A stretch of 64,000 bases of DNA from Gammaproteobacteria bacterium (GCA_965277405.1 OZ255726.1:426280-490279), one strand, 5' to 3'. Shown: positions 524 through 60,378, numbered from the stretch's first letter. A program made the numbers and translations. The notes: a model not told the origin generated them from the letters alone.

Positions 524-852
524 GGAAGCTCTGATTAACTCGCTGAGTGAGCGAGTTTGCCTGCAATTGCTGATGATTGCAAGGCGCAAACCGCTGAGCG
601 CATGCCCTAGCATATACGCCAAGGGATGCAACACAGCAAGCATAAACAACTGCCGCATACCAAAAGTATATATATGCAACAGAGGGATGGAAAAAAACGC
701 TGCGCTGCGTCGTTGTAGTACTTGGCAATACCCACAATACCCACAATACCCACAAGACCCAGCAGTGTTAGCTTGGCACTGCACTTAAGTTATCAGCAGC
801 GTTGTTGCGCCGTTGCGCCGTCTCGCCCATCATGGACTTAATCAGAAGTTGC
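524..852. mobile_element. MITE-like element (IS5-family derived), copy with 9-bp microsatellite (caataccca x3) inside
   Basis: Starts GGAAGCTCTGATTAACTC, ends GGACTTAATCAGAAG; shares internal sequence (GCATATACGCCAAGGGATGCAACACAGCAAG) with other copies; preceded by TTAG; right end abuts stop codon of the 853..1842 gene. Confidence 0.7.
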
Positions 853-1842
853 TTATATCGATAAATCGACAACAATACGACCATGTGCTTTGCCAGCCAT
901 CATCTGCTTGGCATACCGCATCAGTCCTCTAAGTCCAACAATATGTTGGATATTGGCATATTCGTCAACAAGCAAATCAGCCAATTGCTGCCAGACTGCA
1001 TGGCGCTTTGCGGTTGGATATTGCACAGAGTCGACTCCGTGCAACTTCACTCCGCGCAGGATAAATGGCATGACTGTTGCTGGCAACAAAAAATCTCCAG
1101 CAAGCCCAGCTGCTATAACTGTTGCTGAGTAGCGCATTTCGCTGAGGATTTGCGCCAACACTGCCCCACCAACCACATCAACCGCACCATCCCATTGTTG
1201 CGTATTCAACGGTGCAACTGTTTGTTGTTGCCATTGTTGCGTGGCAACAACAGTATGTGCCCCGAGGTCTTGCAGGTATTTTTCATGTGCTAAGATGCGT
1301 GTTGTTAACGCATGTACTTCGTAGCCCAGTTTACGCAACAATACAACCGCCACACTGCCGACACCACCAGTTGCGCCACTTACCAGCACTTTTCCTGAAA
1401 CAACACCAGCGTTACGCAGTGCTAGTACGCATAGCATCGCTGTGAGTCCCGCCGTACCAAGTGTCATGGCTTGTATTGCACTCATCCCTATTGGCAGTGG
1501 AACCAACCATTGCGATTGCGCCGATTGATATTCGCTATACCCGCCCCAGTAGCGCTCACCAATGCCCCAGCCGGTCAGAATAACAGCATCACCAACGCTA
1601 TACTTATCGCTTGAAGTTGCCACAACTGTGCCGACAGAGTCGATGCCTGGTACCATCGGCAAAGAGCGAATAATCTTGCCAGTACCAGTAAGCGCCATGG
1701 CGTCTTTATAGTTGAGACTCGAATGTGAAACTTTGATGAGCACGTCACCATCAGGCAAATCTGTTGGCGCAATGCGCTCTATAGCACCACTCATGCCTGC
1801 TGCATCTTGGCGCATGATAAATGCTTTAAACGTGTCTTCCAT
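853..1842 (-). CDS. yhdH: YhdH/AcuI-type NADPH quinone oxidoreductase (MDR superfamily; acrylyl-CoA reductase-like)
   Basis: ORF 853..1881; start moved to ATG at 1842 (MEDTFKAFIM...) with GGTGG upstream; motifs LTGWGIGE..WGGY, GTAGLTAM, VSGATGGVGS, VMPFILRGV typical of the YhdH family. Confidence 0.75.
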   Translation of the reverse strand: MEDTFKAFIMRQDAAGMSGAIERIAPTDLPDGDVLIKVSHSSLNYKDAMALTGTGKIIRSLPMVPGIDSVGTVVATSSDKYSVGDAVILTGWGIGERYWGGYSEYQSAQSQWLVPLPIGMSAIQAMTLGTAGLTAMLCVLALRNAGVVSGKVLVSGATGGVGSVAVVLLRKLGYEVHALTTRILAHEKYLQDLGAHTVVATQQWQQQTVAPLNTQQWDGAVDVVGGAVLAQILSEMRYSATVIAAGLAGDFLLPATVMPFILRGVKLHGVDSVQYPTAKRHAVWQQLADLLVDEYANIQHIVGLRGLMRYAKQMMAGKAHGRIVVDLSI

Positions 1843-1949
1843 AGTCCACCCCCCACAACTGTAAAGCAGGCATCGTACCATGCATCAAGGCGATGTTGCT
1901 GATGAAAGTTATCTGCTCAATTCCATGTGTGCGCTTGCTGAGCGATGCA

Positions 1950-5946: not shown

Positions 5947-6075
5947 TGGAAGCTCTGACTAACTCGCTGATTGCGCGAGTTAGCCTGCAATTGACAGGCG
6001 CATGCCGTAGCATATACGCCAAGGGATGCAACATAGTAAGCAATTGCCGCAAACCAAGAGTATATGCAACAGCGG
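5947..6075. mobile_element. MITE-like element, partial copy (one arm only)
   Basis: GGAAGCTCTGACTAACTCGCTGATTGCGCGAG...GCATATACGCCAAGGGATGCAACATAGTAAG matches left arm of the repeat family; no second terminus. Confidence 0.55.
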
Positions 6076-6091
6076 ACAGCAAACAACAGCG

Positions 6092-6832
6092 CTAGCGTGA
6101 ATCCATAATTTGTCGGTAAGCTCGAGCAATTTCAGCTGTTTTTTTGTTGGCTATTTCAATCATCTCTTCTGGTAGACCACGCGAGGTCAACTTATCTGGG
6201 TGGTTTTCTTTCATCAATACGCGATACTTTCTCTTTACTTCGTTTTTTGTTGCCTGCGGATGCAAATCGAGCACCTGATACGCTTCTGCTATAGTATTTT
6301 CACCAAGCCCCATGGAATGGCGCACCGCCTGCTCGACTGCATCCATAGTATGTTGTGCAATATTCAGTGCCTCACCAATTTTTTTGATAATCGCTTTTTC
6401 TGCACGATGCAACTTGCCATCGCCATACGCGCTATACAACAACATTTGCATCATCGTGGTTTTTAAGTGAGGGTGGGTTATGTATTCGCTTGCCTGTTGC
6501 AATAGCTTTTCAATATTAAAATCATCACGTTTGCCGATGTTAAAAAGCTTAATCGCCGCTTGCTGTTGTTGCTCGTTTAGGCGCATTTGCCGAAAAACTT
6601 CCCTGGCTATATTGATTTCATGTTGCGAAATAACACCATCAGCCTTGGCAATATGTCCCATCAGCGTAAAAACAGTGCTAAAAAAAACCGCCTGCGACTG
6701 CTCGGTGTGGGACATAGAGCTTTTCAGCCCTTTGTCAAATGAATGCCCAAATGCAGCGCCTAGCACCAAACCAAGCGGCCCACCCATGGCAAAGCCAAGG
6801 GCACCACCAACTATTTTTCCCCACCAGCTCAT
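6092..6832 (-). CDS. djlA: Co-chaperone DjlA (N-terminal TM, TerB-like middle, C-terminal J domain)
   Basis: C-terminal J-domain (YQVLDL...KRKYRVLMKENHPDKL); start set to ATG at 6832 (MSWWGKIVG), which overlaps the pdxH stop in an ATGA arrangement. Confidence 0.75.
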   Translation of the reverse strand: MSWWGKIVGGALGFAMGGPLGLVLGAAFGHSFDKGLKSSMSHTEQSQAVFFSTVFTLMGHIAKADGVISQHEINIAREVFRQMRLNEQQQQAAIKLFNIGKRDDFNIEKLLQQASEYITHPHLKTTMMQMLLYSAYGDGKLHRAEKAIIKKIGEALNIAQHTMDAVEQAVRHSMGLGENTIAEAYQVLDLHPQATKNEVKRKYRVLMKENHPDKLTSRGLPEEMIEIANKKTAEIARAYRQIMDSR

Positions 6833-14855: not shown

Positions 14856-14988
14856 CAGCAGTCCTCAGATTGCTTAGCAATCAATGCAAAGCGCATCTAT
14901 AAGCAAGCAAATTCGTTGAGTACAGCAAGTAGCGGTTACGCCATGATATGCATTAATCCAATTGTGATGACCGTTTGCAGATACATAG

Positions 14989-15272
14989 GGAAGCTCTGAT
15001 TAAGTCCATGATGGGCGAGACGGAGAAAAAACGCTGATGATAACTAGACGCAGTGGGCAGATAATACTGGTGGTATTATCAAGTACTGCAACGACGTTAG
15101 CGCAGCGTTTTTTCCCGTCCTTCTGTTGAATATACTTTGGGTTTGCTGCAGCGGTACTTGCTGTGTTGCATCCCTTGGCGTATATGCTACGGCATACGCC
15201 TGCGGAATGCGCCTTGCAATCATCAGCAATTGCAGGCAAACTCGCTCCATCAGCGAGTTAATCAGAGGTTCC
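14989..15272. mobile_element. MITE-like element (IS5-family derived), near-complete copy
   Basis: GGAAGCTCTGATTAAGTCC...GAGTTAATCAGAGGTTCC; reverse orientation relative to copy at 524. Confidence 0.7.
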
Positions 15273-15347
15273 ATCGTAGCTGTTATGTGCAAGACCGATA
15301 AAAACCAAGACCACACGAATGCGGCCTTAGTCAGGAGGATCGGTGTG

Positions 15348-16205: not shown

Positions 16206-16369
16206 GTAAAACTCTCTGTCGTTGATGCTATAATTTATTTTTTTCAGTTGGTATGCCCGTACTGCAATCCAGCCTACACAATATACGTTTTGATATAAAT
16301 GATGAATTTGTTACAAGTTGTAAATGAATATTCATTATTTTTCAAGGGTAACACTATTTATCAGCCCTA

Positions 16370-16418
16370 GCGGACTCGCTGATTAAGTGGCTCCATCAGC
16401 GAGCTAGTCAGAGATTCC
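16370..16418. repeat. Palindromic mini-relic of MITE terminus in rpoH upstream region
   Basis: GGACTCGCTGATTAAGTGGCTCCATCAGCGAGCTAGTCAGAGATTCC followed by TTAG; resembles MITE end CTCCATCAGCGAGTTAATCAGAGCTTCC. Confidence 0.4.
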
Positions 16419-16478
16419 TTAGATATATAGTTTTTTTACAATTTTTTCAATAGTCCTGCATCGCATTTTAATAATTCA

Positions 16479-17066
16479 TCAATTGTTTGCTGTCGCAAGC
16501 CGTATAAAGTTTTCTAAAAGTGTATGCCCATGTTCAGAAAGAATTGATTCTGGATGAAACTGTACCCCATACATTGCCGCATCAATAACCCGCAACCCCA
16601 TAACTTCATCGCGGTTATTCTCCGCATCTAAACTCCACGCAGTGACGGCAATCGAGTCTGGGATATCTGTTACAACCAGCGAATGATACCTTCCCGCGAC
16701 AAATGGTGACGGAATATTTTCAAAGACATCACCGCCAAGATGTTCAATTGAAGATGCTTTACCGTGCATAATATGTTGTGCTTGGACTATCCGCGCGCCG
16801 TATGCTTGAGCAATAGCTTGCATTCCCAAGCAAACACCCAAAATGGGGATGCTGCTGCCAAGCTCGCGCACGACATCAAGGCAAATACCAGCATCATCTG
16901 GCCGGCCAGGCCCTGGAGAAATAACAATGCCTTGTGGTGCCATCTGCTGAATTTCAGTTATATTACACGCATCATTGCGCACTACCCGCGGTTCATGTCC
17001 AAGTTCTCCAAGATATTGCACAAGGTTGTAGGTAAAAGAGTCGTAGTTATCTATCATTAACAACAT
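16479..17066 (-). CDS. trpG: Anthranilate synthase component II / glutamine amidotransferase (TrpG/PabA type)
   Basis: 195 aa class I amidotransferase: GVCLGMQ catalytic Cys, FHPES. Confidence 0.8.
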   Translation of the reverse strand: MLLMIDNYDSFTYNLVQYLGELGHEPRVVRNDACNITEIQQMAPQGIVISPGPGRPDDAGICLDVVRELGSSIPILGVCLGMQAIAQAYGARIVQAQHIMHGKASSIEHLGGDVFENIPSPFVAGRYHSLVVTDIPDSIAVTAWSLDAENNRDEVMGLRVIDAAMYGVQFHPESILSEHGHTLLENFIRLATANN

Positions 17067-17142
17067 TATTATGAAACCTCTAACACAGCGAATTTGTTAC
17101 AAAATGGCGTGGGAATAACACAGCAACCGCGCTATCTCCTAA

Positions 17143-17423
17143 GGAACCTCTAATTAAGTCGCTGATGGAGCGAGTTTGATGGCAATTGCTGATGATTGCA
17201 AGGCGCATTCCGCAGGCGCATGCTGTAGCATATACGCCAAGGGATGCAACACAGCAAGTACCGCTACCATCAAACCCAAAGTATATTCAACAGAAGGACG
17301 GGAAAAACGCTGCGCTCACGTCGTTGCACTTGATAATACCACCAGTATTATCTGCGCACTGCGTCTAGTTATCATCAGCGTTTTTTCTCCGTCTCGCCCA
17401 TCATGGACTTAATCAGAGCTTCC
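17143..17423. mobile_element. MITE-like element (IS5-family derived), complete copy with CTAA flanks
   Basis: GGAACCTCTAATTAAGTC...GGACTTAATCAGAGCTTCC; CTAA at 17139-17142 and 17424-17427. Confidence 0.7.
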
Positions 17424-17427
17424 CTAA

Positions 17428-18636
17428 GGAAGCTCTGATTAAGTCCCAAACAACAGCAATATCAGCTACAAAGATATACAATGGTGAATCTATTTGAATA
17501 TTTGAATAAGCGGATAATCTTATGAAACAAACAACTTTTGCCAGTGCTGCATACGACCACAAGAAAGTAACAACAAAACGTGAAAAATTCTTGCAGTCGA
17601 TGGACAAATTAGCTCCATGGCAACGGTTGTTAGCGTTAATAGAACCGCATTATCCCAAGAAAGGGAATGGCCGCCCACCAATTAATATGCAGACCATGTT
17701 ACGCGTTTATTGTTTACAGCAATGGTACAACTTATCAGACCCAGGGGTAGAAGAAGCACTATATGACATGGAAAGCATGCGGCGTTTTGCCCATATAGAG
17801 CTGATAGACGATGCCATCCCTGATGAAACTACCATCTTGAACTTCCGCAGGATCATAGAAAAGCATCAACTCAGCGTCAAGATACTTGCTGTGGTGAATG
17901 AGTATTGTATGGAAAATAATATAACAATCTCACAAGGGTCGATGGTTGATGCCACGATCATCCATGCACCATCATCTACGAAGAATAAAGAGAAAGCCCG
18001 TGATCCTGAAATGCATCAAACAAGGAAAGGCAATCAGTGGTATTTTGGCATGAAGATTCATATAGGAACTGACGCTAATAGCAATATGATTCATAGCGCG
18101 ACAGTGACAGCCGCGAATGAAGCTGACATCAATGAACTCCCAAAATTGCTGCGTGAAACAGATAAGGTTATCTTTGCCGATGCAGGATATACGAGCGACA
18201 GTTATAAACGCGGCTCGCGTCATCTTGGGATAGATTGGCGTGTGAATGATAAACGCAAGCCAAAGCAGCAAATGAGCACCTCGCAGCGCAAACGCAATAG
18301 ACAGAACTCTAAGGTGCGCGCCCGGATTGAGCACTGTTTTCGGGTAATCAAATGTCAGTTTGGTTATAAGAAAGCTCGCTACAAAGGACTAGAAAAGAAC
18401 CGAGTACAAGTATTTTCTTTGCTTGCATTGACGAACTTATACATGCTTCGAGGACGACTAACAGGATAGAACCGCCAAAAATTCAAGAAAAACAGTAAAA
18501 AACAGTAAAAAACAGTAAAACAGCAACACGAAGATCAGCGAAATGATCAAATATTGACCATTGAAAATTATTGCTATTATTTTTTTGGAGTATATGCGAG
18601 TTATTGGAGTATATGAGCGTCTTAATCAGAGCTTCC
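17428..18636 (+). mobile_element. IS5-family insertion sequence (1209 bp) with perfect 16-bp TIRs and 4-bp CTAA flanks
   Basis: Left end GGAAGCTCTGATTAAG at 17428; right end CTTAATCAGAGCTTCC ending 18636; CTAA at 17424-17427 and 18637-18640; single transposase ORF inside. Confidence 0.8.
17522..18469 (+). CDS. IS5-family DDE transposase
   Basis: 315 aa; close resemblance to IS5 transposase (DPEMHQTRKGNQWYFGMKIHIGTD, FADAGY, VRARIEHCFRVIKCQFGYKKARYKGL). Confidence 0.9.
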   Translation: MKQTTFASAAYDHKKVTTKREKFLQSMDKLAPWQRLLALIEPHYPKKGNGRPPINMQTMLRVYCLQQWYNLSDPGVEEALYDMESMRRFAHIELIDDAIPDETTILNFRRIIEKHQLSVKILAVVNEYCMENNITISQGSMVDATIIHAPSSTKNKEKARDPEMHQTRKGNQWYFGMKIHIGTDANSNMIHSATVTAANEADINELPKLLRETDKVIFADAGYTSDSYKRGSRHLGIDWRVNDKRKPKQQMSTSQRKRNRQNSKVRARIEHCFRVIKCQFGYKKARYKGLEKNRVQVFSLLALTNLYMLRGRLTG

Positions 18637-18695
18637 CTAAGGAACCTCTAACACATAATACTTGGCTGCATGGTAGCCGTAATCTATCGAAACAT

Positions 18696-19226
18696 ATGAG
18701 TAAAACACAACAAAAACGCGATATGCACGCCGTACAAGAACTTGGTGAGCAACTTTTGCAATTGCCGCAGCATTGGCAATCATTACTTGATGCTAAGGCA
18801 ATTGATAGCGCACTTGTCAGCCATTTTACTGAATTTAATCACATCCATGCCAAAGAAGCCCGCCGCCGTCATCTCCAATTTATTGGCAAAATACTCCGCA
18901 AGTATGACACAGACCTCATTCTTAAAACGCTATCTCAACTCGATATCAAACAAAAACGGCAAGCGGTCGGTCAGCATGAACTCCAAGAGTTGTGTGTATT
19001 ACTGCTAGCAAGCAACAATGCAGGCTTTGTCGCAGCAACCACTAAGTTTCCAAACATACCGCGGCAAACGCTGCAGCAACTACTGCGGCAATCCCCAAAA
19101 TATAATACAGGTCTACAGCCATGGGCATCACAGGCAAATAAATATCATCGGAAGCTCTGGCAATTGCTTGTCGTTGAAAATCGCCACAGCGTAGCAGCCG
19201 ACGAGCCAGCACAACTCGATGGCTAA
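18696..19226 (+). CDS. yjgA: Ribosome-associated protein YjgA (DUF615)
   Basis: ORF-track start 18561 lies inside the IS; start placed at first ATG outside the IS (18696, MSKTQQKRD); ARRRHLQFIGKILR resembles YjgA core. Confidence 0.65.
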   Translation: MSKTQQKRDMHAVQELGEQLLQLPQHWQSLLDAKAIDSALVSHFTEFNHIHAKEARRRHLQFIGKILRKYDTDLILKTLSQLDIKQKRQAVGQHELQELCVLLLASNNAGFVAATTKFPNIPRQTLQQLLRQSPKYNTGLQPWASQANKYHRKLWQLLVVENRHSVAADEPAQLDG

Positions 19227-19299
19227 CCATCCAGCATCGATGCGAATCACTGCATGATGGCGTTCTCTGCAAATTTATTGCGAAGCTGCAGACCCTTAG

Positions 19300-19584
19300 G
19301 GAAGCTCTGATTAAGTCGCTGATGGAGCGAGGTTGCCTGCAATTGCTGATGATTGCAAGGCGCAAACCGCTAAGCGCATGCCGTAGCATATACGCCAAGG
19401 GATGCAACACAGCAAGTACCGCTTGTAGGCAAACCATCATATATTCAATAGAAGGACGGGAAAAAACGCTGCGCTAACGTCGTTGCAGCACTTGATAATA
19501 CCACCAGTATTATCAAGTGCTGCGCCTAGTTATCATCAGTGTTTTTTCTCCGTCTCGCCCATCATGGACTTAATCAGAGCTTCC
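19300..19584. mobile_element. MITE-like element (IS5-family derived), complete copy with TTAG target duplication
   Basis: GGAAGCTCTGATTAAGTCGCTGATGGAGCGAG...GGACTTAATCAGAGCTTCC flanked by TTAG at 19296-19299 and 19585-19588. Confidence 0.75.
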
Positions 19585-19612
19585 TTAGACAATAGCGTAT
19601 TCAAACTCGCGG

Positions 19613-20368
19613 TTATTTTGCGGCTATATCAATCAATTCAACTTCGAATTTCAACAGTGAGTTAGCAGGAATTGAATTAGTGCCGCTTTCACCATAGCCA
19701 AGCTCAGGCGCAATATAAAAAGTAAATATGTCGCCAACACTCATCAACAACAAGCCTTCTTGCCATCCTTTAATAACGCCATTCAATGGAAACTGTGACG
19801 GCTCGTTGCGGTTACGTGAGCTGTCAAACTCAGTGCCATCAAGCAACGTCCCAACATAATGTACGGTTACAATACTATCATGCGTAGGTTCATTGGTGGC
19901 ATCACTTTTTTTGTCGATAATATATTGCAGACCAGAGTCTGTAGTTATTACACCAGCTTTCTTGCCATTTTCTGCAAGAAATGCACGCGCTGCTGCAAGA
20001 TTTTTTTCCGAATCAGCGGTTGTATTAGCTTGCTGTTGCTGCGCTTGCTCTTCTGTTCTCTTTTTTTCCATATAGATACGAACAGTCGTCTCTAATTCTG
20101 CAAGTGGTACAACTGGCTCTTTATTTTCTGTGGCGGAGGTTGCTCCTTGTAAAAAAACATCTTTGTCAATTTCTTTAAAGAAATCTATTACCTGCTTAGT
20201 TTGTAAATAACCAATGGCATAGCTCATTTGTTCTGAAGCTGACAATGCCGGGTAATCAATGGTTGTTTCTTTTGCTATAGATTGCTCTGTTGTTGCTTGC
20301 GATGCGGTATCACTACCATTACAAGCAGCAAGAAAGAGCGTAAATACTGTTAGCAATTTGCGATTCAT
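19613..20368 (-). CDS. FKBP-type peptidyl-prolyl cis-trans isomerase, Mip/FkpA-like lipoprotein
   Basis: Lipobox LFLAAC; C-terminal FKBP domain (VTVHYVGTLLDGTEFDSS..GWQEGLLLM..PELGYG). Confidence 0.8.
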   Translation of the reverse strand: MNRKLLTVFTLFLAACNGSDTASQATTEQSIAKETTIDYPALSASEQMSYAIGYLQTKQVIDFFKEIDKDVFLQGATSATENKEPVVPLAELETTVRIYMEKKRTEEQAQQQQANTTADSEKNLAAARAFLAENGKKAGVITTDSGLQYIIDKKSDATNEPTHDSIVTVHYVGTLLDGTEFDSSRNRNEPSQFPLNGVIKGWQEGLLLMSVGDIFTFYIAPELGYGESGTNSIPANSLLKFEVELIDIAAK

Positions 20369-20497
20369 AATGTATCCTTAATTGTGTTGTTAATATTCAA
20401 ATACACATACCATGCTATGTAGGTTGTTGCATTTAGTAAAATGTATTCCTGACTGCGTTGTTAATATGCAAAATACGCATATATCTAGATTGTTACA

Positions 20498-21448
20498 TTA
20501 AGTAATGCGAGTTACTTGTTTTTGTAACATTGTTTCAACAATAGCCCTCCTACTGCCCAGCGGAAAATAATCCAACTCCACCAATGCTGCATCAATATGC
20601 TGTTGCGCATATACTCTGCACTGGTCAAACACCTGCTGGGATGTAAACAATGCTGTACACGTTACCAATGCATCAGGTTGCTGCAAACTATCTTGCAACA
20701 GTCGTTGCTGCTGCGGTGTTCCTTGATGGTAGCCAATCAACCATGGCAAGGTTTTTTTTCCTTCGCGCAAGTCCTGTCCTGCTGTTTTTCCAGTATCAGT
20801 ATCTGGCAAATAGTCGAGCAAATCATCGACGATTTGAAAAGCCATGCCTAGATGATATCCTAGCTGTTCGGCATGCTTAAAAATACTGGCTGGAGCATTT
20901 GCAACTGCCACTGCACTATAACATGTAGCTTGAAACAACCGCGCAGTTTTTTTATGAATAATCGACCAATACTTATCCATGCTCGGCGTTTGCTCTTGCA
21001 TATGCAACAATTGGTCGATCTCTCCCTCGGTGATTACATTGGTGCAGTCAGCAACATAGCGCACTAATTGCAAATTATTTGTTTGTGTCAACATTTGTAC
21101 AGCGCGTGAATATAAAAAATCACCAGCCAATACCGTATGTGCATTGCCCCAGACAATATGTGCGCATGGCTTGCCGCGACGAATCTGTGCATCATCAATG
21201 ATGTCATCATGAACTAACGTGGCGATATGAATACATTCAATAACACTGGCAATCCGCAGCAACTCTTCAACATCGCCATCAAGAGATAGCCCTAATGCCA
21301 ATGCAACTTGCGCCCTGGTATGTTTACCACCAGCATTATGCAAATATGCGCTAAATGCATTCACTTCATCCAGCTCAGAGTAAATACGCCCTGCAAACTC
21401 ATTGACAAACCGCGCATACGCCGCAGCAAATACCGCTGTATCAGTCAT
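20498..21448 (-). CDS. ispB: Polyprenyl (octaprenyl) diphosphate synthase
   Basis: Two aspartate-rich motifs LVHDDIIDD and FQIVDDLLD. Confidence 0.8.
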   Translation of the reverse strand: MTDTAVFAAAYARFVNEFAGRIYSELDEVNAFSAYLHNAGGKHTRAQVALALGLSLDGDVEELLRIASVIECIHIATLVHDDIIDDAQIRRGKPCAHIVWGNAHTVLAGDFLYSRAVQMLTQTNNLQLVRYVADCTNVITEGEIDQLLHMQEQTPSMDKYWSIIHKKTARLFQATCYSAVAVANAPASIFKHAEQLGYHLGMAFQIVDDLLDYLPDTDTGKTAGQDLREGKKTLPWLIGYHQGTPQQQRLLQDSLQQPDALVTCTALFTSQQVFDQCRVYAQQHIDAALVELDYFPLGSRRAIVETMLQKQVTRIT

Positions 21449-21453
21449 CGTCT

Positions 21454-22260
21454 TTATTGTGTTAATAATTGCTCAACCATGTCGTCCATAACATACAGTT
21501 TTGTTGCTGTACAGCCAACAATATGCGTTGCTGCCAACAACGCGCCGCGAGCAAATACTGAGCGCGTCATCACCCGATGGGTTAATTCTAAACGTTCACC
21601 CTCTTGAGCAAACATCACCGTATGCTCACCAATAATATCTGCTGCCCGAATCGAAGAAAACCCAATCTGACCAGCCATACGCTGCTTGCGAACGCTATGG
21701 CGGTCGAATACAGCAACATCATCGAACGCAATATCACGGGCCTGTGCAACGACGTGACCTAAATCAAGCGCAACGCCTGATGGCGCATCTATCTTTTGCT
21801 TATGGTGTGCCTCAATGATTTCAATATCCGCCGCGGCTAATGCGCGTGACGCCTGCCTTACTAAGCTACGCAATACATGAATTCCCACACTGGTATTCGT
21901 CGCATACAGCACAGGAATCTGTAAACTGACCTGCTGCATATATAATTCAGTTGCAACATCAAGCCCCGTAGTGCACATTACTAAAGGGGTGCTGTGCTCG
22001 ACACATTGGTCGATGATTGCCCTGGTAGCACTCGCCAAAGAAAAATCGATAACGACATCACTTGTATGTAGCGTAGCGCTCATGATAATTGGATTCGTTA
22101 TTTGCGGTTCAAGAGATTGCACCGGCTGTTGAAAAAACGCAGACTCCTTGCGCACCAGCGCGCAGCTGAGTTGATACTCACGAGGATTGGCAGCAATGAT
22201 ACGCAACAACTCGCGTCCCATCCGTCCAGAAGCACCTGCTACAGCAATCTGTAATGTCAT
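21454..22260 (-). CDS. dapB: 4-hydroxy-tetrahydrodipicolinate reductase
   Basis: Start set at ATG 22260 (MTLQIAVAGASGRMG, NAD-binding); EAHHKQKIDAPSG motif. Confidence 0.8.
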   Translation of the reverse strand: MTLQIAVAGASGRMGRELLRIIAANPREYQLSCALVRKESAFFQQPVQSLEPQITNPIIMSATLHTSDVVIDFSLASATRAIIDQCVEHSTPLVMCTTGLDVATELYMQQVSLQIPVLYATNTSVGIHVLRSLVRQASRALAAADIEIIEAHHKQKIDAPSGVALDLGHVVAQARDIAFDDVAVFDRHSVRKQRMAGQIGFSSIRAADIIGEHTVMFAQEGERLELTHRVMTRSVFARGALLAATHIVGCTATKLYVMDDMVEQLLTQ

Positions 22261-22322
22261 ACTTAAATCTACAAAGTTCAAAGACCATAGCATATATATA
22301 ACAACTTATACAATACTCCGAA

Positions 22323-23624
22323 ATGTTACCTTTATTTTCTACCACCGCTGCAAATTTTGCAGAGCAACTCAGCAAACGCCTAGATCGATTGAGTGCTGAC
22401 GACACAAAACTGCGCGCCACTGTTGGCACAATTATTGAAGATGTCCGCAGCCGCGGCGATGCAGCGTTACTCGAATACACCAAGCAATTCGACCATGTTG
22501 GTGCAATGGAAATTGACAAATTACACATTGGAGCAGCAGCCATTCACAACGCCTTGCTGTCAATTGATAACGCAACACGAGAACATTTAGAATTTGCAGC
22601 AGACAATATTCGCCGCTACCACCAACAACAAGTCCGCGCAGATTGGCATTATACAGACGCACTCGGCAACACACTCGGGCAAAGAATCACGCCAATTGAT
22701 GCCGTTGGTATTTACGCACCAGGCGGCACAGCATGCTATCCATCGTCAGTATTGATGAATGCAATCCCCGCAAAACTTGCAGGTGTTGACAGGATTGTCC
22801 TCGTCAGCCCCACCCCAAATGACGTCGTCAACCCTATATTACTCGCAGCTGCTGCAGTTGCCGGCATCGATGAAATGTGGCGTATTGGTGGCGCGCAAGC
22901 AATTGCTGCATTAGCGTATGGCACCAACAGCATCCAAGCGATTGATAAAATAACAGGGCCTGGCAACCAATACGTCAGCGAAGCCAAGCGCCAAGTATTT
23001 GGCAAGGTTGGCATCGATATGATTGCAGGTCCTTCTGAATTGTTAATAATCAGCGATGAGCACATTGACCCGGTCACGGTCGCAGCTGACTTATGCGCGC
23101 AAGCCGAACACGACACCAACGCGCAATCTATCTTGCTCTCAACCAGCCCAACCCATTGCCAAGCGGTGATCCATGCCATTGAAAACTTGCTCAAACTGCA
23201 AAGTTTTGGCAATCGTGATAAAATTATTCGTACCTCACTGCAAAACCGCGGCGCTGCAATTAGCTGCAAACACATCGATGAAGTAATCGAACTTGCTAAC
23301 TATATCGCTCCTGAACATTTGCAAATTATGGTTAACAACAGCAACGAAATTCTGCCGAAAATCAAACATGCAGGCGCAATATTTATTGGCAACAGCTGTG
23401 AAGTGCTCGGTGACTACTGCGCTGGTAGCAACCATGTGTTGCCCACCAACGGCAGCGCACGGTTCTTTTCTGGGCTGAGTGTTGACGACTTTACCAAAAA
23501 AACTGCCATCATCGACTGTTCGCTCAGTGGTGCAGCGACACTGGCCTATACTGCGCACAAACTAGCACAGCTTGAAGGACTACCAGCGCATGCCTTTGCC
23601 GCAGCACAACGTATGTCCCCATAA
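22323..23624 (+). CDS. hisD: Histidinol dehydrogenase
   Basis: 433 aa; GPGNQYV, IDMIAGPSE, AEHDTNAQS motifs. Confidence 0.9.
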   Translation: MLPLFSTTAANFAEQLSKRLDRLSADDTKLRATVGTIIEDVRSRGDAALLEYTKQFDHVGAMEIDKLHIGAAAIHNALLSIDNATREHLEFAADNIRRYHQQQVRADWHYTDALGNTLGQRITPIDAVGIYAPGGTACYPSSVLMNAIPAKLAGVDRIVLVSPTPNDVVNPILLAAAAVAGIDEMWRIGGAQAIAALAYGTNSIQAIDKITGPGNQYVSEAKRQVFGKVGIDMIAGPSELLIISDEHIDPVTVAADLCAQAEHDTNAQSILLSTSPTHCQAVIHAIENLLKLQSFGNRDKIIRTSLQNRGAAISCKHIDEVIELANYIAPEHLQIMVNNSNEILPKIKHAGAIFIGNSCEVLGDYCAGSNHVLPTNGSARFFSGLSVDDFTKKTAIIDCSLSGAATLAYTAHKLAQLEGLPAHAFAAAQRMSP

Positions 23625-23916
23625 GGAAGCTCTGATTAACTCGCTGATGGAGCGAGTTTGATGGCAATTGCAGATGATTGCAAGGCGCAAACCGCTGAGT
23701 GCATGCCGTAGCATATACGCCAAGGGATGTAACACAGCAAGTACCGCTGCCGCAAACCCAAAGTATATGTCAACTCAACGACGGGAAAAACGCTGCGCTA
23801 ACGTCGTTGCAGCACTTGGCAATACCCCCAGACCCACCAGTGTTAGCTGCGCGCTGCGCTTAAATTTCATCAGCGTTTCTTCTCCGTCTCGCCCGTCATG
23901 GACTTAATCAGAGACT
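23625..23916. mobile_element. MITE-like element, copy beginning immediately after hisD stop codon
   Basis: hisD TAA at 23622-23624 directly followed by GGAAGCTCTGATTAACTC; distal end degenerate (GGACTTAATCAGAGAC). Confidence 0.7.
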
Positions 23917-24050
23917 GTAAATGCTACGGAGGTGTGTTCACACATCAGCTAACTAACAAGCTGGTACTGTATTAGTTACTAAACAAAGGAGTACAGCAGG
24001 AACAACCCACATTATTGTGCCAAAACAACGTTTCATAGTCGAGAAGTTAC

Positions 24051-24090
24051 GATTCACAGGGTGCTTGTCGACAAGCACCCTGTGAATCGC
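24051..24090. repeat. 40-bp perfect palindrome centred on GTCGAC
   Basis: CGATTCACAGGGTGCTTGTCGACAAGCACCCTGTGAATCG read directly from sequence; sits at 5' edge of IS481-like remnant. Confidence 0.8.
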
Positions 24091-24103
24091 GTAGCCAACT
24101 ATT

Positions 24104-24960
24104 TTGCCATTTCGCTACTATTCGCTACTAACTGTTTACAAGTGGCGCAGACGCTATACATCAGGTGGAACATCTGCACTGTATAATCTTTCTAGCAGGC
24201 CAATTTCAAGCCCAGCTAAGCTCGCTGAGACCTTGGCTCAACGCATCCAAAAACTCTATTTAGAGTCACAAATGAATGCACGGAGCATTGCCAGGTATTT
24301 GCAATTGGCATACTCCACTGTCACCAAAATTTTGAGGCGGTTGTCCCTGACAAAAAAGACCTTAACAAGAGAAAAAGCGCAGCGATATGAGCACGATCAC
24401 CCCGGCGACATGCTGCATCTGGACATCAACAAACTGCAACGTTTTACTCCACCTGGGCATAAATTTGGCGCTCCTGCAACAGCAAATACAGCCCAAGGTA
24501 TTGAGTGCGTCGATGTTGGTATTGATGACCATAGTCGATGGGCGGTTGTGGCGGTGCTTCCTGATGAGAAAAAGGCAACGACGCAGGGGTTTATTCACCG
24601 ATCATTCGAGCATTTTTCATCATTGGGAATAGCGGTGCAACGGCTGATAACAGCCAACGCACCTGCATATTGATCCAAAGTTCGTAAATCGATATCTTGA
24701 TGCTTGTCAAATCAACCAGGTTTTTGCCAAACCATACAGGCCGCAGACCAACGGAAAAGCAGCAAGGTTTATACAAACGATTGCCAAGGAATGGGCATTT
24801 TCGCAGCCATAGCAAACAAGTGATGAGCGCAACAAAACTCTTTCAAAATACCTTAACCACTATAACCTCAGGAACCTCAGGCGCACACATTCCGCTTTAG
24901 GGAATCTACCACCAGCTGCTAGAATTGTTGGTTTTTGTAAACAACGTGTGTAGTTTTGAC
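24104..24960 (+). pseudogene. IS481-family transposase remnant (N-terminally truncated, frameshift and in-frame stop)
   Basis: ORF 24104..24673 carries HTH and start of DDE core (RYEHDHPGDMLHLDINKL...IDDHSRWAVVAVLPDEKKATT); continuation found by own translation in two other frames (KPYRPQTNGKAARFIQTIAKEWAF stop; ...YLNHYNLRNLRRTHSALGNLPP) ending near 24960. Confidence 0.6.
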
Positions 24961-25400
24961 ACTTATACCTGCATACCTTGCTTGGGTGATTCATGTACGG
25001 ATTAACATTATTGGTTTGTGGCTCACATACGCGAACATCGCGGCAAGCTCTAATTATTGTATATCCACAATTACTGCATAGCCAAAAATTGCGCCTGTTC
25101 AATGGCGTCACATCTGCGCATAGCAAGCATCATGTCATGCGCTGCGATTAAATTGCCCAACACATGTATTGTATTTGATGGCTGTAATAATTTGTTAATC
25201 GGTGAATTTTGATTTCATCATGCAAATTCTCCTGTTCAGATTGTAACAATCTGCTGCTGGTAACCCATGCTAATTTTAAGGGGGATTACAAGTCGACAAA
25301 AACAAATAATACTGTAATATCGCTGGCTTTATTTATGACATACAACTCACTATGAAGTGGGTTGAAGTAAGTGAATACAATTTTAACGGAGGAAAATTAT

Positions 25401-29814: not shown

Positions 29815-29888
29815 AATACGGCATGCGCCTTGCAATCATCAGCAATTGCAGGCAAACTCGCTCCATCAGCGAGTTAATCAGAGCTTCC
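29815..29888. mobile_element. MITE-like element, terminal fragment
   Basis: GCGCCTTGCAATCATCAGCAATTGCAGGCAAACTCGCTCCATCAGCGAGTTAATCAGAGCTTCC, about 70 bp downstream of hsdR 3' end. Confidence 0.55.
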
Positions 29889-29960
29889 ATAGCTTAATTT
29901 TAAACAAATATACAATAATCACCCCGCACTTTTATGGTTGAGTTAATTTTTAAGCAATTC

Positions 29961-32816: not shown

Positions 32817-32860
32817 TTGTTCTATTAAAATATGCCTAAGGAAAGATATCCTCTATTATT

Positions 32861-35835: not shown

Positions 35836-35838
35836 ATT

Positions 35839-37580: not shown

Positions 37581-37869
37581 GGAAGCTCTGATGAAGCCCA
37601 TGATGGGCGAGACGGAGAAAAAACGCTGCTGATAACTAGCCGCAGTGCGCAGATAATACTGGTGGTCTTGTGGGTGCTGCCAAGTGCTGCAACGACGTTA
37701 GCGTAGTGTTTTTTCCCGTCCTGCTGTTGAATATACTTTGGGTTTGCGGCAGCGGTACTTGTGCTGTGCTGCATCCCTTGGCGTATATGCTACGGCATGC
37801 GGTTTGCGCCTTGCAATCATCAGTAATTGCCAGCAAACTCGCTCCATCAGCGAGTTAATCAGAGCTTCC
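37581..37869. mobile_element. MITE-like element, complete copy immediately upstream of the RM operon
   Basis: GGAAGCTCTGATGAAGCCC...GAGTTAATCAGAGCTTCC; followed by another TIR-like stub GGAATCTCTG. Confidence 0.7.
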
Positions 37870-37953: not shown

Positions 37954-39660
37954 TTATTCTGCATAGTTGTTATGTTGAGTAGCTTCATCCGCGGCTTCTG
38001 CTAATTCCATTTGGGTAATAATCGTTTCAGCGTCATCAATAATATCCTGAATACTCTGTTGTTCTTGTGGTGATGCGCCGGCAATTAAGCTGTCGGTAAT
38101 AAGTTGATTCACCCGTTGTTTGCGCAGTATTAAAATATCATGCAACGATTGGGCGATAAGGATGCGGCGGTCTGGATAGTTGCTCGTTAATGCTTGAATA
38201 ATTGTATCAGCGCAGCGTGGCAGCAATAATACCAAGTGCTGTGCTACATCTTCTGGTTGCAGTCGATTATTTTCAAACGCTGTATATATAAATTCTGCAG
38301 CATGTTCTGGGCTGAATGAAATGGCTTGGGCGAGCAGTTTTATCTCTGGGTCTAATATATCAGTGAGCTGGTATTCATATGCAGGGTTTAACGGTGTTAT
38401 TTGATGCGTAGCAACTTGGGTGATCATTTGCACGCTTGTTTCCTTGTATAAGCGCTTGCGGTTGAAGATGCTTTGCCAAAACACATACACAGAGTAGATA
38501 ACATGGACTACTGCTATCGACATATACAACGCAGCATTGCCCAAAATCTCCATTAAGAAGCCGCCAATCTGCTGCCCTAACACGCTAAAAATTCCGTATA
38601 ACAGCATCATTTTGCTCATGATTGGCAAAATATCTTCATTTTTAATGCGCTCAAACATATGCGCATATGCAAGGGGATACATGCACGCTGCCATGCCGCT
38701 TGCCAAGACGAAGCTCGCTATTAACAACCAATCTGGATACATGAACGGTTGTGATAGTACAATCGATACATTGGCAAGAGCACCGACGGCAGAAACTATA
38801 ATTGCCAATGCCTGCTTATTGATGGTATCCGCTAGCCAGCCAACAGGAAATTGAAATATCATTGAGCCGATATAAAAACTCGCTAACACAATGGTAATGA
38901 CGAAAAATGGATGGGTGGCGACAATGCTATTTGCATACACTGGGGTTAAGCTGATTGTTGATAAAGTAACAAGCCCGGCACACATCATCCCAACTACACT
39001 CACTGAAGAAATCGACCACAATTGTTTGATTGGAATTTTCTTTGTGTCCTCAGAAAATGACGGAACAGGGCGATTTGTTAAACCAAGAGGAATCAGTGAA
39101 ACGCAAAAACATATAGCAATTAAGCCAAATAACCTAGGGTCATCGGCGTTGGTAATGTGCAAAATAAACGGCGCGATAATCCCGCCTAAGCCATACGAGA
39201 TTTGATATGTTGAAAAAATCCTGCCACGGGTAGTGCTGGTGCTTAACCCCGTCAACCAACTTTCCATAATGATAAAATTTGTAGTAATCGCATAGCCAAA
39301 CAATAGGCGCATCAATGCTACAAACCAAACAGAATCAACATAGCCGTGCGTAATAGCCAGCACACTGATAACCGCAGACATTACTGAAAATGCGCGTATA
39401 TGACCAACGCGGGTAATCAGCCTTGAACCAAAAATACAAGAGAGAATAGTTCCAATAGAATAACAGGACATTGCCAGGCCAATCAAGCCAGTTGATACTC
39501 CGTTATTCTCTAATCTAATCGGCAGGGTTATAAATAGCAGCGCGTGACCAATGACACCAATCAGTGTTGCAGACAATATAGAATTTGTCCGTCCAAGCAA
39601 TTGCAACATCCACATAACAACACTCTGTGAGTACTTAAGAAACTTCAGTTTAATATACAA
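37954..39660 (-). CDS. MFS transporter (YcaD-like) with long hydrophilic C-terminal extension
   Basis: 12 predicted TM segments in first ~400 aa, then ~170 aa charged tail; true start possibly an internal Met (MWMLQLLG). Confidence 0.7.
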   Translation of the reverse strand: MYIKLKFLKYSQSVVMWMLQLLGRTNSILSATLIGVIGHALLFITLPIRLENNGVSTGLIGLAMSCYSIGTILSCIFGSRLITRVGHIRAFSVMSAVISVLAITHGYVDSVWFVALMRLLFGYAITTNFIIMESWLTGLSTSTTRGRIFSTYQISYGLGGIIAPFILHITNADDPRLFGLIAICFCVSLIPLGLTNRPVPSFSEDTKKIPIKQLWSISSVSVVGMMCAGLVTLSTISLTPVYANSIVATHPFFVITIVLASFYIGSMIFQFPVGWLADTINKQALAIIVSAVGALANVSIVLSQPFMYPDWLLIASFVLASGMAACMYPLAYAHMFERIKNEDILPIMSKMMLLYGIFSVLGQQIGGFLMEILGNAALYMSIAVVHVIYSVYVFWQSIFNRKRLYKETSVQMITQVATHQITPLNPAYEYQLTDILDPEIKLLAQAISFSPEHAAEFIYTAFENNRLQPEDVAQHLVLLLPRCADTIIQALTSNYPDRRILIAQSLHDILILRKQRVNQLITDSLIAGASPQEQQSIQDIIDDAETIITQMELAEAADEATQHNNYAE

Positions 39661-39664
39661 CGAT

Positions 39665-39803
39665 TTGCGGCAATTGCGGTACTTCTGTGTAGCATCCTTT
39701 GGCGTATATGCTACGCCATGTGCTTAGCGGTTTGAGCCTGGCAATCATCAGCAATCGCAACAAGCTCACTCCAAATCGACTAAATTAAAGGTTCCTTAAA
39801 ATA
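39665..39803. mobile_element. MITE-like element, degenerate partial copy
   Basis: GCATCCTTTGGCGTATATGCTACG...GGCAATCATCAGCAATCGC resembles MITE core with substitutions. Confidence 0.4.
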
Positions 39804-40275
39804 ATAACGTCTGGTTTACAGGTGGCTGAGTAAGTTGATGCGTTGTTAGGCTGATTGCCGCGACGCGGTCTAATGCCTTGTTCCAAGTTTCATACCTTGC
39901 TGCAACAGATACTTGTATGGCTTGTTGAATAAGGGAGAAACCGTATTTTTGTGGGCTGCGAATGCGCGAAGAACTTGCTCGCAGCAATACATACAACCAT
40001 GATGCTTCTACGCGGTTGTGATCGATTTCAAGACCGAGTTTACGGCATTCGTTTTTAAGGATAGCTGAATCTTCAATGTGAAAAAACTGATGATAGGTAT
40101 CGACAAGCTGTGCGTCGATGCGCTCGATGATGACAGTACGCTCTTCTTCGCTATAGCGTATCCACAGGCTTACTTCAAAATGAAAACGTTTGCAGCCGCG
40201 ACAGACGTTATCACCATACACAGTGCTGCAAGCACCAATGCATGGGTTGGTATATATTTTTGGAGCAGTCAACAT
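39796..40275 (-). CDS. Hypothetical protein with DUF1289-like Cys motif at N-terminus
   Basis: NPCIGACSTVYGDNVCRGCKRFHFEVSLW matches Cx3Cx...CxGCxR...W pattern of DUF1289; rest unassigned. Confidence 0.4.
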   Translation of the reverse strand: MLTAPKIYTNPCIGACSTVYGDNVCRGCKRFHFEVSLWIRYSEEERTVIIERIDAQLVDTYHQFFHIEDSAILKNECRKLGLEIDHNRVEASWLYVLLRASSSRIRSPQKYGFSLIQQAIQVSVAARYETWNKALDRVAAISLTTHQLTQPPVNQTLLF

Positions 40276-40373: not shown

Positions 40374-40669
40374 GGAATCTCTGATTAACTCCATGATGGA
40401 TAAGACGGAGCAACAACGCTGACGATAACTGTGTTGTGCGCAGGTCACACTGGTGGGTCTTGTGGGTATTAGCAAGTGCTGCAACGACGTTAGTACCGCT
40501 TTTTTTCCGTATTAAGTTCAATAAACTTGTGGTTTGCGGCATTGCTTACGCTTGCTGTATTGCATCCGTTGGCGGATATGCTACGGCAGGCGCTTATGCG
40601 GTTTGCGCCTTGCAAATCATCAGCAATTGCCCGCAAACCCGTGGTATCAGCGAGTTAAGCTGCTGTTCC
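40374..40669. mobile_element. MITE-like element, diverged complete copy
   Basis: GGAATCTCTGATTAACTCC...GAGTTAAGCTGCTGTTCC with recognisable internal core. Confidence 0.55.
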
Positions 40670-40744
40670 ATAAAACCAATGGGTGATACTGGCTGGCGTA
40701 TATTGCAATTATTGGTTTTGGATGGGGCTTGTAACCCAAATGAA

Positions 40745-48380: not shown

Positions 48381-48740
48381 TTGCGTATTACCGCACTGAG
48401 CTCTGGCAAACAAATTTCGCTTGTCATCGCCCAACACACCTTCAAATGTCATCATGCGAATTTTGTCACGTTTGTGCGCACCAGTGATCAGCAACTATGT
48501 CGGTATGTCGCGATTATTGCCAATCGAAATATAAAAAACGCCGTGCTCCGCAACTACACAAAACGCATCATAAGAAATGCGCTACGCAGCTTTGATTGTG
48601 GTGTGCAATGCGACGTCGTGATTATTGCTAAACGTGCTGCCAAGCAAGCCAATAAGGTGCAGCTGCGTGCAGCGATACAAAGCACTATGCGGCGTGTGCA
48701 AAAAAAACACACAGCTAGCAACCTCTGCTTAAATCCATGA
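48381..48740 (+). CDS. rnpA: Ribonuclease P protein component
   Basis: 119 aa basic protein directly downstream of rpmH in conserved rpmH-rnpA-yidD-yidC order; start codon uncertain (TTG at 48381). Confidence 0.75.
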   Translation: MRITALSSGKQISLVIAQHTFKCHHANFVTFVRTSDQQLCRYVAIIANRNIKNAVLRNYTKRIIRNALRSFDCGVQCDVVIIAKRAAKQANKVQLRAAIQSTMRRVQKKHTASNLCLNP

Positions 48741-48776
48741 TACAGCGAGTTAACCAGAGGTTCCTCTACTCATAAC

Positions 48777-52039: not shown

Positions 52040-52393
52040 TCGCAATAGCGGTGGGCAAATATGCAACGCATGTTTGGGTATAGCAAAGTCCGCTAGCGGC
52101 GACTTAAGCAGAGCTTCCTTAGGGAAGAAAAACAAAAAGTCAACTTCTTAGTCTGTTGTTTTTGAACATCAATGCGTCGAGAAACTTAACAGTAGGAATT
52201 ATTCAGAGCTGCCATAGTATTCAAGCAACAATACTTAAAAGTGAATAAAAAGTTACAACAATAATTTTTATTCACCGCTGGAATGTTGTAGACTGTGGAT
52301 GGAGGATTACGAACGGTCTCTGATTAAATCATAGCAGCGCTGCTATCGTCAACTTGATCAGTGGTATTGAAAACACACTAAAGGAGGAAAACC

Positions 52394-59025: not shown

Positions 59026-60378
59026 ATGCAGTGTACAACTTACCGAGCAACTATGGCTGCAAATTCGCTGGAAAACTGTCCCATTCACCGCTCAATAACT
59101 GATTGGTTTGGAGCATATCCAAGCCAACAACCGCTGCTAGTTGCTGTATCTGGCGGGATAGACTCGATGGTGCTGCTCGATGCTTTGCTACACCAAGCAA
59201 ATGTAAAAATCCAAGCGCTGCACTTTCACCACGGCAATGTATTCTCAAATAGCAATGACGCGATGCGTGCTTGCTGTGTGGCGCAATGTGCCCAGCGCGG
59301 CATTGAATGTAGTGTGGTCGATTTGGATGTTACCACGCTAGGCAGCAAAGAAACTGCCGCCAGAAACGCACGCCGTCAGGCGCTTGCAACCTTGCTTGCA
59401 GCACAGCAATACGCGCTGTTGGCGCACCACAGCGACGACCAACTAGAAACATTGTTGTTGCGGCTCGGCCGCGGCACTGGAACCTTTGGAATGCAGGGCA
59501 TACAGCCACGCAGTGCGATTGGTCGCGGTTGGATTGGCAGACCACTATTAGCAGTGACGAAGCAACACATCCACCAGTATGCAAGGGAACACGGCATCGA
59601 ACACTATGAAGACCCCAGCAACGCCGATGATGGTTTCGACCGTAATTATATACGCAAGCATATTGGACAACCTTTGCTGCAACGTTGGCCCAAGAGCAAC
59701 CTAGCCGCACAGCAATGTGCCGCGCAAACACAGCAGTGGTTTGCCATCATCGATACCGTGATTGATAAGATGATGATGCCAGGCGCAGCCGCGATTAGCA
59801 GTGCTGCACTCGCGGCGTTTAGCAAAGTACAACAAGGGATGCTGTTGGCACAATGGTTTGCTAATACTGTTGCCCAGCAAGGGTTGTACCATCATATTCA
59901 GCGGCAGCAACGCCACAGCATGATGGCAAGATATTCGAGCGTAGGCAGTGGTTTTAAAGAGCTATATGCATGGGATAATTGGCGACTATATCGCTATCAA
60001 GCTGCCGTGTATTGTGTTGTGTTGCCAGAGGTGCAACCAATCGAACATGGCAGGCATCGCCAGCAATTGGGGTGGGGAACCTTGCAAGTATCCACCAGCG
60101 CGTGGCAAATAATTACTGACTCTAATTATAGCATTCGCTATCGACAACACGGCGACTGCTGGGCGGATTCGCGTAAGCCAATCAACAAGAGGATGCAACA
60201 ACATGTATTGCCGTGGATGCGCGCAGGCTGGCCAATTATCTGTAATCATCACCATGTCGTAGCAATTATTGGGCTGCCGACCAAGCTGCAATCAAACACT
60301 CTACACCTAAGCAACAAACTTGAGAAAGTGCTTGCTGATATCAGCTGGGACACCAATACTAACATTGCCAATGCCTAA
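59026..60378 (+). CDS. tilS: tRNA(Ile)-lysidine synthetase
   Basis: PP-loop SGGIDSMVLL; 450 aa. Confidence 0.85.
   Translation: MQCTTYRATMAANSLENCPIHRSITDWFGAYPSQQPLLVAVSGGIDSMVLLDALLHQANVKIQALHFHHGNVFSNSNDAMRACCVAQCAQRGIECSVVDLDVTTLGSKETAARNARRQALATLLAAQQYALLAHHSDDQLETLLLRLGRGTGTFGMQGIQPRSAIGRGWIGRPLLAVTKQHIHQYAREHGIEHYEDPSNADDGFDRNYIRKHIGQPLLQRWPKSNLAAQQCAAQTQQWFAIIDTVIDKMMMPGAAAISSAALAAFSKVQQGMLLAQWFANTVAQQGLYHHIQRQQRHSMMARYSSVGSGFKELYAWDNWRLYRYQAAVYCVVLPEVQPIEHGRHRQQLGWGTLQVSTSAWQIITDSNYSIRYRQHGDCWADSRKPINKRMQQHVLPWMRAGWPIICNHHHVVAIIGLPTKLQSNTLHLSNKLEKVLADISWDTNTNIANA

Follow-up and report, generated by a model that had tools for sequence, protein, structure and literature searches.

IS5 of Escherichia coli and its relatives in the IS5 group of insertion sequences (IS) are elements of about 1.2 kb with a single open reading frame (ORF), which encodes a DDE transposase of the NF033581 type, with ends that start with GGAAG and with a 4-bp Py-T-A-Pu target duplication. 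This consensus has been published for the target duplication of IS5 itself (PMC5493358). Bacterial genomes also contain MITEs (short for miniature inverted-repeat transposable elements); these often touch or overlap the 3' end of a gene, to which they sometimes contribute C-terminal codons (PMC5896051, PMC10969869). For Correia elements an RNase III effect, for ERIC an RNase E effect and for QMITE elements derived small RNAs are on record (PMC10969869, PMC5896051). Here we describe a MITE family and its resident IS5-group partner in a 64,000-nucleotide stretch of DNA from a Gammaproteobacteria bacterium (GCA_965277405.1 OZ255726.1:426280-490279; this whole stretch is called the window, and positions are counted from its first letter). 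Ends of the MITE lie directly against the stop codons of hisD and of other genes, and we put the probability at about 0.85 that this contact is an ordinary by-product of IS5-type target choice and not a special device.

Stop codon contacts and the elements that make them

A first, sequence-only reading of the window had noted that an element end touches the TAA stop codon of hisD, tilS and a yhdH-like gene, and all three coordinates are borne out by the sequence. A fourth stop-abutting case in the window, at a DUF1289 gene, had been overlooked. The genes and elements concerned, together with the autonomous partner, are as follows:

22323..23624, plus strand: hisD, histidinol dehydrogenase gene (TIGR00069, 498 bits)
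23625..23913, plus strand: MITE copy 3' of hisD, left terminal repeat intact (nhmmer E=7e-103)
23916..~24960, plus strand: IS481-family pseudogene truncating the right end of the hisD MITE (NF033577, E=4e-34 for ORF 24104-24673)
59026..60378, plus strand: tilS (TIGR02432 and NF007942)
60379..~60434, minus strand: MITE right-end fragment, 56 nt, between tilS and the next gene (nhmmer and sequence)
853..1881, minus strand: acuI/yhdH-family acrylyl-CoA reductase gene, stop TAA 855-853 (TIGR02823, 386 bits)
524..852, plus strand: MITE copy adjoining acuI, left flank TTAG (520-523), right flank TTAT (853-856) (nhmmer E=5e-94 and alignment)
39796..40275, minus strand: DUF1289 gene, 159 aa, TAA 39798-39796 within a TTAA flank (PF06945 on the identical sister-strain gene)
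39643..39795, minus strand: partial, degenerate MITE copy adjoining the DUF1289 gene, model positions 3-161 (nhmmer E=1e-29)
17428..18636, plus strand: full-length IS5-group insertion sequence, autonomous partner of the MITE, CTAA on both sides (17424-17427, 18637-18640) (NF033581)

The hisD stop codon (TAA, 23622-23624) lies within the tetranucleotide ATAA at 23621-23624, which forms the insertion flank, and the GGAAGCTCTGATTAA terminal repeat of the MITE begins at 23625. The right repeat of this copy ends after ...AATCAGAG at 23913, without the last 6 nt of the repeat, and adjoins the IS481-family pseudogene from 23916, whose end sequence TGTAAATGC... is unique in the window. At tilS the stop codon (TAA, 60376-60378) is part of a CTAA flank (60375-60378) and GGAAGCTCTGATTAA begins at 60379; the fragment ends 3 nt ahead of the ATG of the next gene (60438), and the 59-bp spacer that contains it is the same in all three strains compared. 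The MITE beside acuI has a degenerate right end that stops at 852, where the right terminal repeat is chimeric (GCAACTTCTGATTAA). In the sister strain L132 the corresponding order is acuI-TAA-GCAACTTCTGATTA-GGGAAGTTCTGATTAAG..., that is, an extra, older solo end plus the MITE, and the comparison points to the loss of 16 bp between the two repeats in the window as the origin of the chimeric end. The same copy contains an expanded 9-nt repeat at 729-760 (ATACCCACA ATACCCACA ATACCCACA AGACCC); other MITE copies have 0 or 1 unit, and the repeat is hence a small minisatellite within the element. The end that faces the stop codon is the left one at hisD and the DUF1289 gene and the right one at acuI and tilS, so that no orientation bias is seen (2 vs 2). 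When the window is pooled with sister-strain loci, a full IS copy that touches the pntB stop codon in L124 becomes the fifth case; both IS and MITE therefore contact stops.

The family is represented in the window by seven full and about seven partial copies, identified with an nhmmer profile built from the seven full window copies (E down to 1e-105). Full copies measure 276-339 bp, typically about 290 bp, and all seven align end to end. Their terminal inverted repeats are imperfect and span about 30 bp, of which the first 15 nt, GGAAGCTCTGATTAA, are identical to the IS ends at both ends. The partner IS is 1209 bp long and has one transposase ORF (17522-18469, 315 aa) between the ends GGAAGCTCTGATTAAGTCC... 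and ...TCTTAATCAGAGCTTCC, with short terminal inverted repeats starting GGAAG. Its transposase scores 327.5 bits against NF033581 (cut-off 140) over profile positions 2-285 of 285, a protein identical to it contains the Pfam domains DUF772 and DDE_Tnp_1, and it is about 50% identical to ISPpu21, ISPst7 and IS1384. The IS thus shows every IS5-group character tested (transposase model, length and ends, 4-bp Py-T-A-Pu duplication). Between its transposase stop and right end lies a tandem 10-nt repeat of about three units (AAAACAGTAA, 18492-18525).

The repeat likewise shows the MITE characters tested: it is small and non-coding, shares its ends with an IS, duplicates its target, is polymorphic for presence or absence and exists in many copies. 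The sequence-only reading had called it a MITE, and its size, the terminal repeats shared with a resident IS and the target duplications support that name; judged by these features, the repeat is a non-autonomous MITE derived from an IS5-group IS that still resides in this genome. A coding capacity of the MITE was considered and rejected, as all reading frames are disrupted in one copy or another by indels of 1, 2 and 8 nt. The ORF-like peptide MIARRKPLSAC..SIYAKGCNTAS, which had been thought to recur in every copy, is intact in three of the seven full copies, frameshifted in three and devoid of a start in one.

Target choice and the expected rate of stop contact

The target was analysed at 61 non-redundant, well-preserved ends drawn from the window and from retrieved sister-strain loci. 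The latter comprise about 115 kb of DNA that is 98-99.8% identical to the window, from the ENA assemblies ERZ26859071 and ERZ26859072, retrieved via exact-protein look-ups. The flank is TTAG at 21 ends, CTAA at 18, TTAA at four, ATAA at three, ATAG at two, CTAG at two and some other tetranucleotide at 11; YTAR is found at 45/61 and NTAR at 50/61. These TTAG/CTAA flanks agree with the published IS5 target Py-T-A-Pu. Two copies with perfect duplications, and a mini form of the element in the window, are the following:

17143..17423, plus strand: MITE copy, perfect 4-bp duplication CTAA (17139-17142, 17424-17427), the right CTAA being also the left flank of the IS
19300..19584, plus strand: MITE copy, perfect 4-bp duplication TTAG (19296-19299, 19585-19588)
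48718..48764, no strand assigned: mini-element of 47 nt, two terminal repeats only, overlapping the 3' end of rnpA

A filled and an empty site could also be paired. The sister strain L129 has CTAA-[47-nt mini-element]-CTAA (10933-10987); at that place only one CTAA is present in the window (59000-59003) and in L130. The inserted mini-element, GGAAGCCCTAATTAAGTCGCTGATTGAGCGAGTTAATCAAAGGTTCC, is a hairpin-only derivative of the MITE that is absent from these two other strains, and mobility therefore persists in elements that consist of hardly more than two terminal repeats. A 52-nt mini form was found at L119 664-715. Identity of the 47-nt form with repetitive extragenic palindromic sequences or bacterial interspersed mosaic elements (REP/BIME) was rejected on account of the 4-bp duplication, which such palindromes lack, and the IS5-type ends; no search was made for a gene of the IS200/IS605-like REP-associated tyrosine transposase (RAYT) to which they are linked. 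The sequence-only reading had proposed a TTAG/CTAA target containing the stop codon, and the CTAA/CTAA and TTAG/TTAG duplications, the 39/61 flanks and the filled/empty pair all uphold it.

As a null expectation for stop contact we used unoccupied TTAG/CTAA sites at which insertion plus duplication leaves all genes intact, with genes called by a greedy longest-ORF rule. In the window, eight of 43 such permissible sites are stop codons (18.6%), and contact was observed at 4/14 element sites (P=0.26). In the pooled sample of about 180 kb, 15/196 permissible sites are stop codons (7.7%) and contact was observed at 5/38 sites (P=0.17). If coding sites are counted as well, 1.6% of all TTAG/CTAA sites are stop codons, and against this null contact is 8-18-fold enriched (P=3e-4 pooled, 5e-5 window); we infer that this excess reflects the loss of intragenic insertions. 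The contact rate is not in excess of the permissible-site null, and the pattern is therefore that predicted by target specificity together with loss of intragenic insertions. Absence of enrichment at stop codons was the outcome that the sequence-only reading had named as refuting its proposal; with the comparison confined to sites that tolerate an insertion, contact is not enriched beyond random non-coding TTAG/CTAA sites. A repeat that seems to "aim" at stops is no sign of function without a null model drawn from non-coding target sites.

The same numbers bear on whether the three contacts first reported are coincidental and unconnected with target choice. The window holds only three or four cases and its intergenic spacers are short, as such a coincidence would have it. 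However, 39/61 ends have a TTAG or CTAA flank, tetramers that make up 0.6% of the background, and the rate of contact is 8-18 times the expectation from all TTAG/CTAA sites (P=3e-4 to 5e-5). Coincidence is already refuted by the flank statistics and retains a negligible probability.

Target choice would operate as follows. The DDE transposase encoded by the IS would recognise the shared terminal inverted repeats, that is GGAAGCTCTGATTAA and about 15 further, partly matching bases, and would act in trans on the MITE. Both elements integrate at TTAG/CTAA, more loosely at N-T-A-R, and duplicate 4 bp, a step that is shown by the sequences. TTAG and CTAA contain TAG and TAA, and any gene ending in ...C-TAA, ...T-TAG or, more loosely, N-TAR therefore exposes its own stop codon to insertion; a canonical flank, if read towards the element, is always N-TAA or N-TAG. 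Since 4 bp are duplicated, the gene-side copy retains the stop codon and the whole reading frame, and the protein is unchanged. Insertions at the far commoner TTAG/CTAA sites within genes would be purged by selection. The expected outcome is a frequency of contact between element ends and stop codons that roughly equals the share of stop codons among non-coding TTAG/CTAA sites. The long hairpin added to the 3' untranslated region (3'-UTR) would be a side effect of the palindromic build, with no evidence of selection for function.

The hisD locus offers a direct view of the site before insertion. In the sister strains L119 and L120, hisD ends ...GTCCCCATAA, with the same CCATAA, followed by GATGG... 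and by gidB 24 bp later; there is no MITE, and these sites are empty. The HisD protein has 433 aa in the window and the same length at the empty sites. The stop codon therefore predates the insertion and survived it.

Alternatively, the stop codons could belong to the element, which would have inserted inside gene 3' ends and supplied new TAA or TAG triplets from its terminus, shortening or altering the proteins. There are examples of this kind. The rnpA gene (48381-48740) reads 23 nt, or seven codons, into the 47-nt mini-element at 48718-48764 and ends at a TGA borne by the element, and in L126 a gene of 412 aa ends 14 nt inside a fragment. In two of its frames the terminal repeat, as read from its sequence, offers TGA and TAA, and in the remaining frame a stop follows within 12-15 codons. 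At hisD, however, the two empty sites have the same ...CCATAA and the same protein length of 433 aa. Moreover, flanks vary from copy to copy (TTAG, CTAA, TTAA, ATAA) yet match across the two sides of a given copy, which identifies them as host sequence that was duplicated and not as part of the element. For the contacts described here we consider an origin of the stop codon in the element very improbable. The last seven codons of rnpA do come from the mini-element, an arrangement shared by sister strains (L128, L130).

A further possibility is that copies at stop codons have been kept or recruited as 3'-UTR RNA, as terminators, as stabilisers or destabilisers of mRNA, or as a source of small RNAs. 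Folding of a full copy yields, on either strand, a rod-like hairpin of -140 kcal/mol (z = -13 and -12), as expected because the MITE is near-palindromic. Such stability favours a role as RNA, and so does the fact that all sister strains sampled contain most of the window copies, among them the ones at acuI, tilS and the DUF1289 gene. The published precedents of Correia elements (RNase III), ERIC (RNase E) and QMITE (derived small RNAs) make a regulatory role possible by analogy (PMC10969869, PMC5896051).

Several observations speak against it. Contact with stop codons is not in excess over permissible target sites, and the orientation is not fixed, two left and two right ends facing the four genes. 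Truncation or degeneration affects many of the copies. The 60-95 nt that directly follow each of the four stops fold no better, or marginally better, than their shuffles (z = -0.8, -1.0, +1.1, -2.2), the copy at tilS being a 56-nt fragment whose folding resembles that of its shuffles (z = -1.0). Structure prediction, proposed as a check by the sequence-only reading, found full copies very stable, and the tilS fragment and the stop-proximal 60-95 nt unremarkable. No terminator-like site lies inside any MITE copy in 14800-24200, where a scan for 3-8-nt loops gave 10 sites, a count equal to the shuffle expectation, and no Rfam family matched the MITE. Covariation is nil, with a term of +0.4 and compensatory change in 3/59 pairs in an alignment of 17 copies. 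The suggestion in that reading of a terminator, stabiliser or small-RNA source thus gains no support from the terminator scan, Rfam or covariation. Where retrieved sister loci cover a site of the window, the site is shared, save for hisD and for two clusters, at 17137 and at 52084, that vary; the loci do not extend to the fragment at 29818. At 98-99.8% identity, sharing is expected by common descent alone and, judged from these sequences, means only that the insertions are older than the split of the strains. A retained function as 3'-UTR RNA is therefore quite unlikely in our view.

Several points weigh against a by-product of target choice as the explanation, and have to be set beside it. 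The flank at hisD is ATAA and not TTAG or CTAA, and the other side of that copy was lost to the IS481 pseudogene and rearrangement, which leaves its duplication beyond checking. The trans action of the transposase on the MITE is an inference from the shared ends and target. The sample of about 180 kb represents about 8% of a chromosome of about 2.17 Mb and is non-random, much of it having been fetched through IS copies. Gene calls followed a simple longest-ORF heuristic, and the null fraction ranges from 8% to 19% by region. A 2-fold enrichment at stop codons is compatible with 38 sites and could not be excluded.

Rearrangement, chains and further copies

Homology of the window to the sister strains stops exactly at 23625, directly after the hisD stop codon. 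Beyond this point (window 23625-25370, compared with L119/L120 11303-12760) the order in the window is hisD, MITE, IS481 pseudogene and genes of a TRAP-TAXI transporter, and the order in the sister strains is hisD, gidB (rsmG) and parA. Since downstream synteny differs from that of the sisters, the hisD MITE copy marks a rearrangement breakpoint. The closest homologues of HisD, in assorted Gamma- and Betaproteobacteria, share about 53% identity with it. At L126 1888-2201 lies a second IS481-family copy, with 96% identity to window 23923-24172, inserted in a MITE after an internal CTAG. IS481 prefers the target NCTAGN, which fits this position, and the MITE may be a recurrent target of IS481 too.

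Head-to-tail chains of IS and MITE, with neighbours exactly one TTAG or CTAA apart, occur in the window (17139-18651) and at L119 2608-6293, L120 4517-6319, L122 8660-12330, L121 9915-11408 and L124 9616-11114. Three tandem IS copies are present in each of L119 and L122, and five of the seven sampled IS copies adjoin another element. Since flanks of resident elements make up about 30% of the usable target sites, the chains are weak evidence for self-targeting. Each insertion would regenerate TTAG/CTAA at both ends, resident copies could then be preferred landing pads from which chains arise, and the chains, together with stop-codon copies such as that at hisD, could act as breakpoints in the repeat-laden genome of about 2.17 Mb. 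This extension is tentative and rather unlikely.

In this genome, the element flags places of rearrangement between strains. It also matters for annotation, where ORFs within MITE copies get called as genes. For instance, a 132-aa 'gene' has been called across a MITE copy at L119 6720-7118, and the start of an aldehyde dehydrogenase has been called inside a MITE at L132 16703-18457.

The remaining copies and fragments in the window are listed below; about 24 further element sites were found in the sister-strain DNA.

5948..6138, plus strand: partial MITE copy, 16 bp past the stop of an aldehyde dehydrogenase gene (nhmmer)
14989..15272, minus strand: MITE copy, flanks ATAG and ATCG
16386..16418, minus strand: MITE left-end fragment, flank TTAG
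29818..29888, minus strand: MITE left-end fragment at the edge of a low-GC restriction-modification island, flank ATAG
37581..37869, minus strand: MITE copy, left flank TTAA, with a degenerate solo repeat next to it at 37875
40374..40671, minus strand: diverged MITE copy between the DUF1289 gene and rpsI (alignment and nhmmer)
52084..52118, minus strand: solo terminal-repeat fragment, flank TTAG; the sister strain L129 has an IS copy at that TTAG

The low-GC island (29818-37873) has a GC content of 30-33%, compared with about 44%, and encodes a restriction-modification system of type I, with hsdR at 29961-32816 and an hsdM-like gene at 35839-37494. The MITE fragment at 29818-29888 and the full MITE at 37581-37869 enclose the island, whose gene content differs in the sister strain L127. 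The minimum of the cumulative GC skew of the window also falls at about 36-40 kb. Two minus-strand RNA genes, for 6S RNA (46710-46890; 48 bits, just above the gathering score) and for a tRNA (43024-43096), are unrelated to the stop contacts.

Comparison with described elements

A scan of a genome collection with the 15-mer GGAAGCTCTGATTAA returned at least 117 scattered matches in unrelated genomes (Gammaproteobacteria, Acidobacteriota, Nitrospira), and no MITE copy was among them; the pattern is too unspecific. About 30 loci match over 21-32 nt, with some matches of 25-27 nt, and these may be ends of related IS5-group elements. With an internal 21-mer of the MITE, a metagenome scan gave one match, at a contig edge. 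The literature searched holds only general precedents, and no description of this family or of stop-codon targeting by IS5-type MITEs; the MITE family and its IS partner thus appear to have been undescribed so far. What is new here is this family, its narrow TTAG/CTAA preference and its hairpin-only derivatives of 47-52 nt; MITEs at gene 3' ends are already well documented. In this respect the family adds an IS5-derived MITE to those known; its hairpin-only derivatives of 47 nt are unusual and still transpose, and one of them moved recently.

Among the relatives of the partner IS, ISPpu21 on plasmid pTTS12 is flanked by TTAG on either side, and its end reads GGAAACTCTGAAAAAG; in this it behaves like the element described here. 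Compared with IS5, the target is narrower: TTAG and CTAA dominate, whereas CTAG, the commonest IS5 target, is found at only 2/61 ends. Unlike the named IS5-group relatives, the IS of this genome gave rise to an abundant MITE family of about 290 bp and to mini forms of 47-52 nt. The Tourist/mPing MITEs of plants (PIF/Harbinger superfamily) belong with a transposase superfamily related to IS5, and their target, TTA/TAA, contains a stop triplet; they differ from the element described here in being eukaryotic, in having a 3-bp duplication and in lacking any sequence relationship with it.

QMITE1 and QMITE2 of Coxiella burnetii, the Correia elements of Neisseria and ERIC and YPAL of Yersinia are, like the MITE of the window, short, multi-copy, hairpin-forming, non-coding and mostly intergenic. 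They have other parents or targets: Correia elements use TA, and QMITE2 has variable repeats of 7-11 nt. For several members of the Correia, ERIC and QMITE group effects at the RNA level have been measured, whereas the element described here is known from sequence alone. It also differs from them in that its contact with stop codons is explained by the target tetranucleotide itself.

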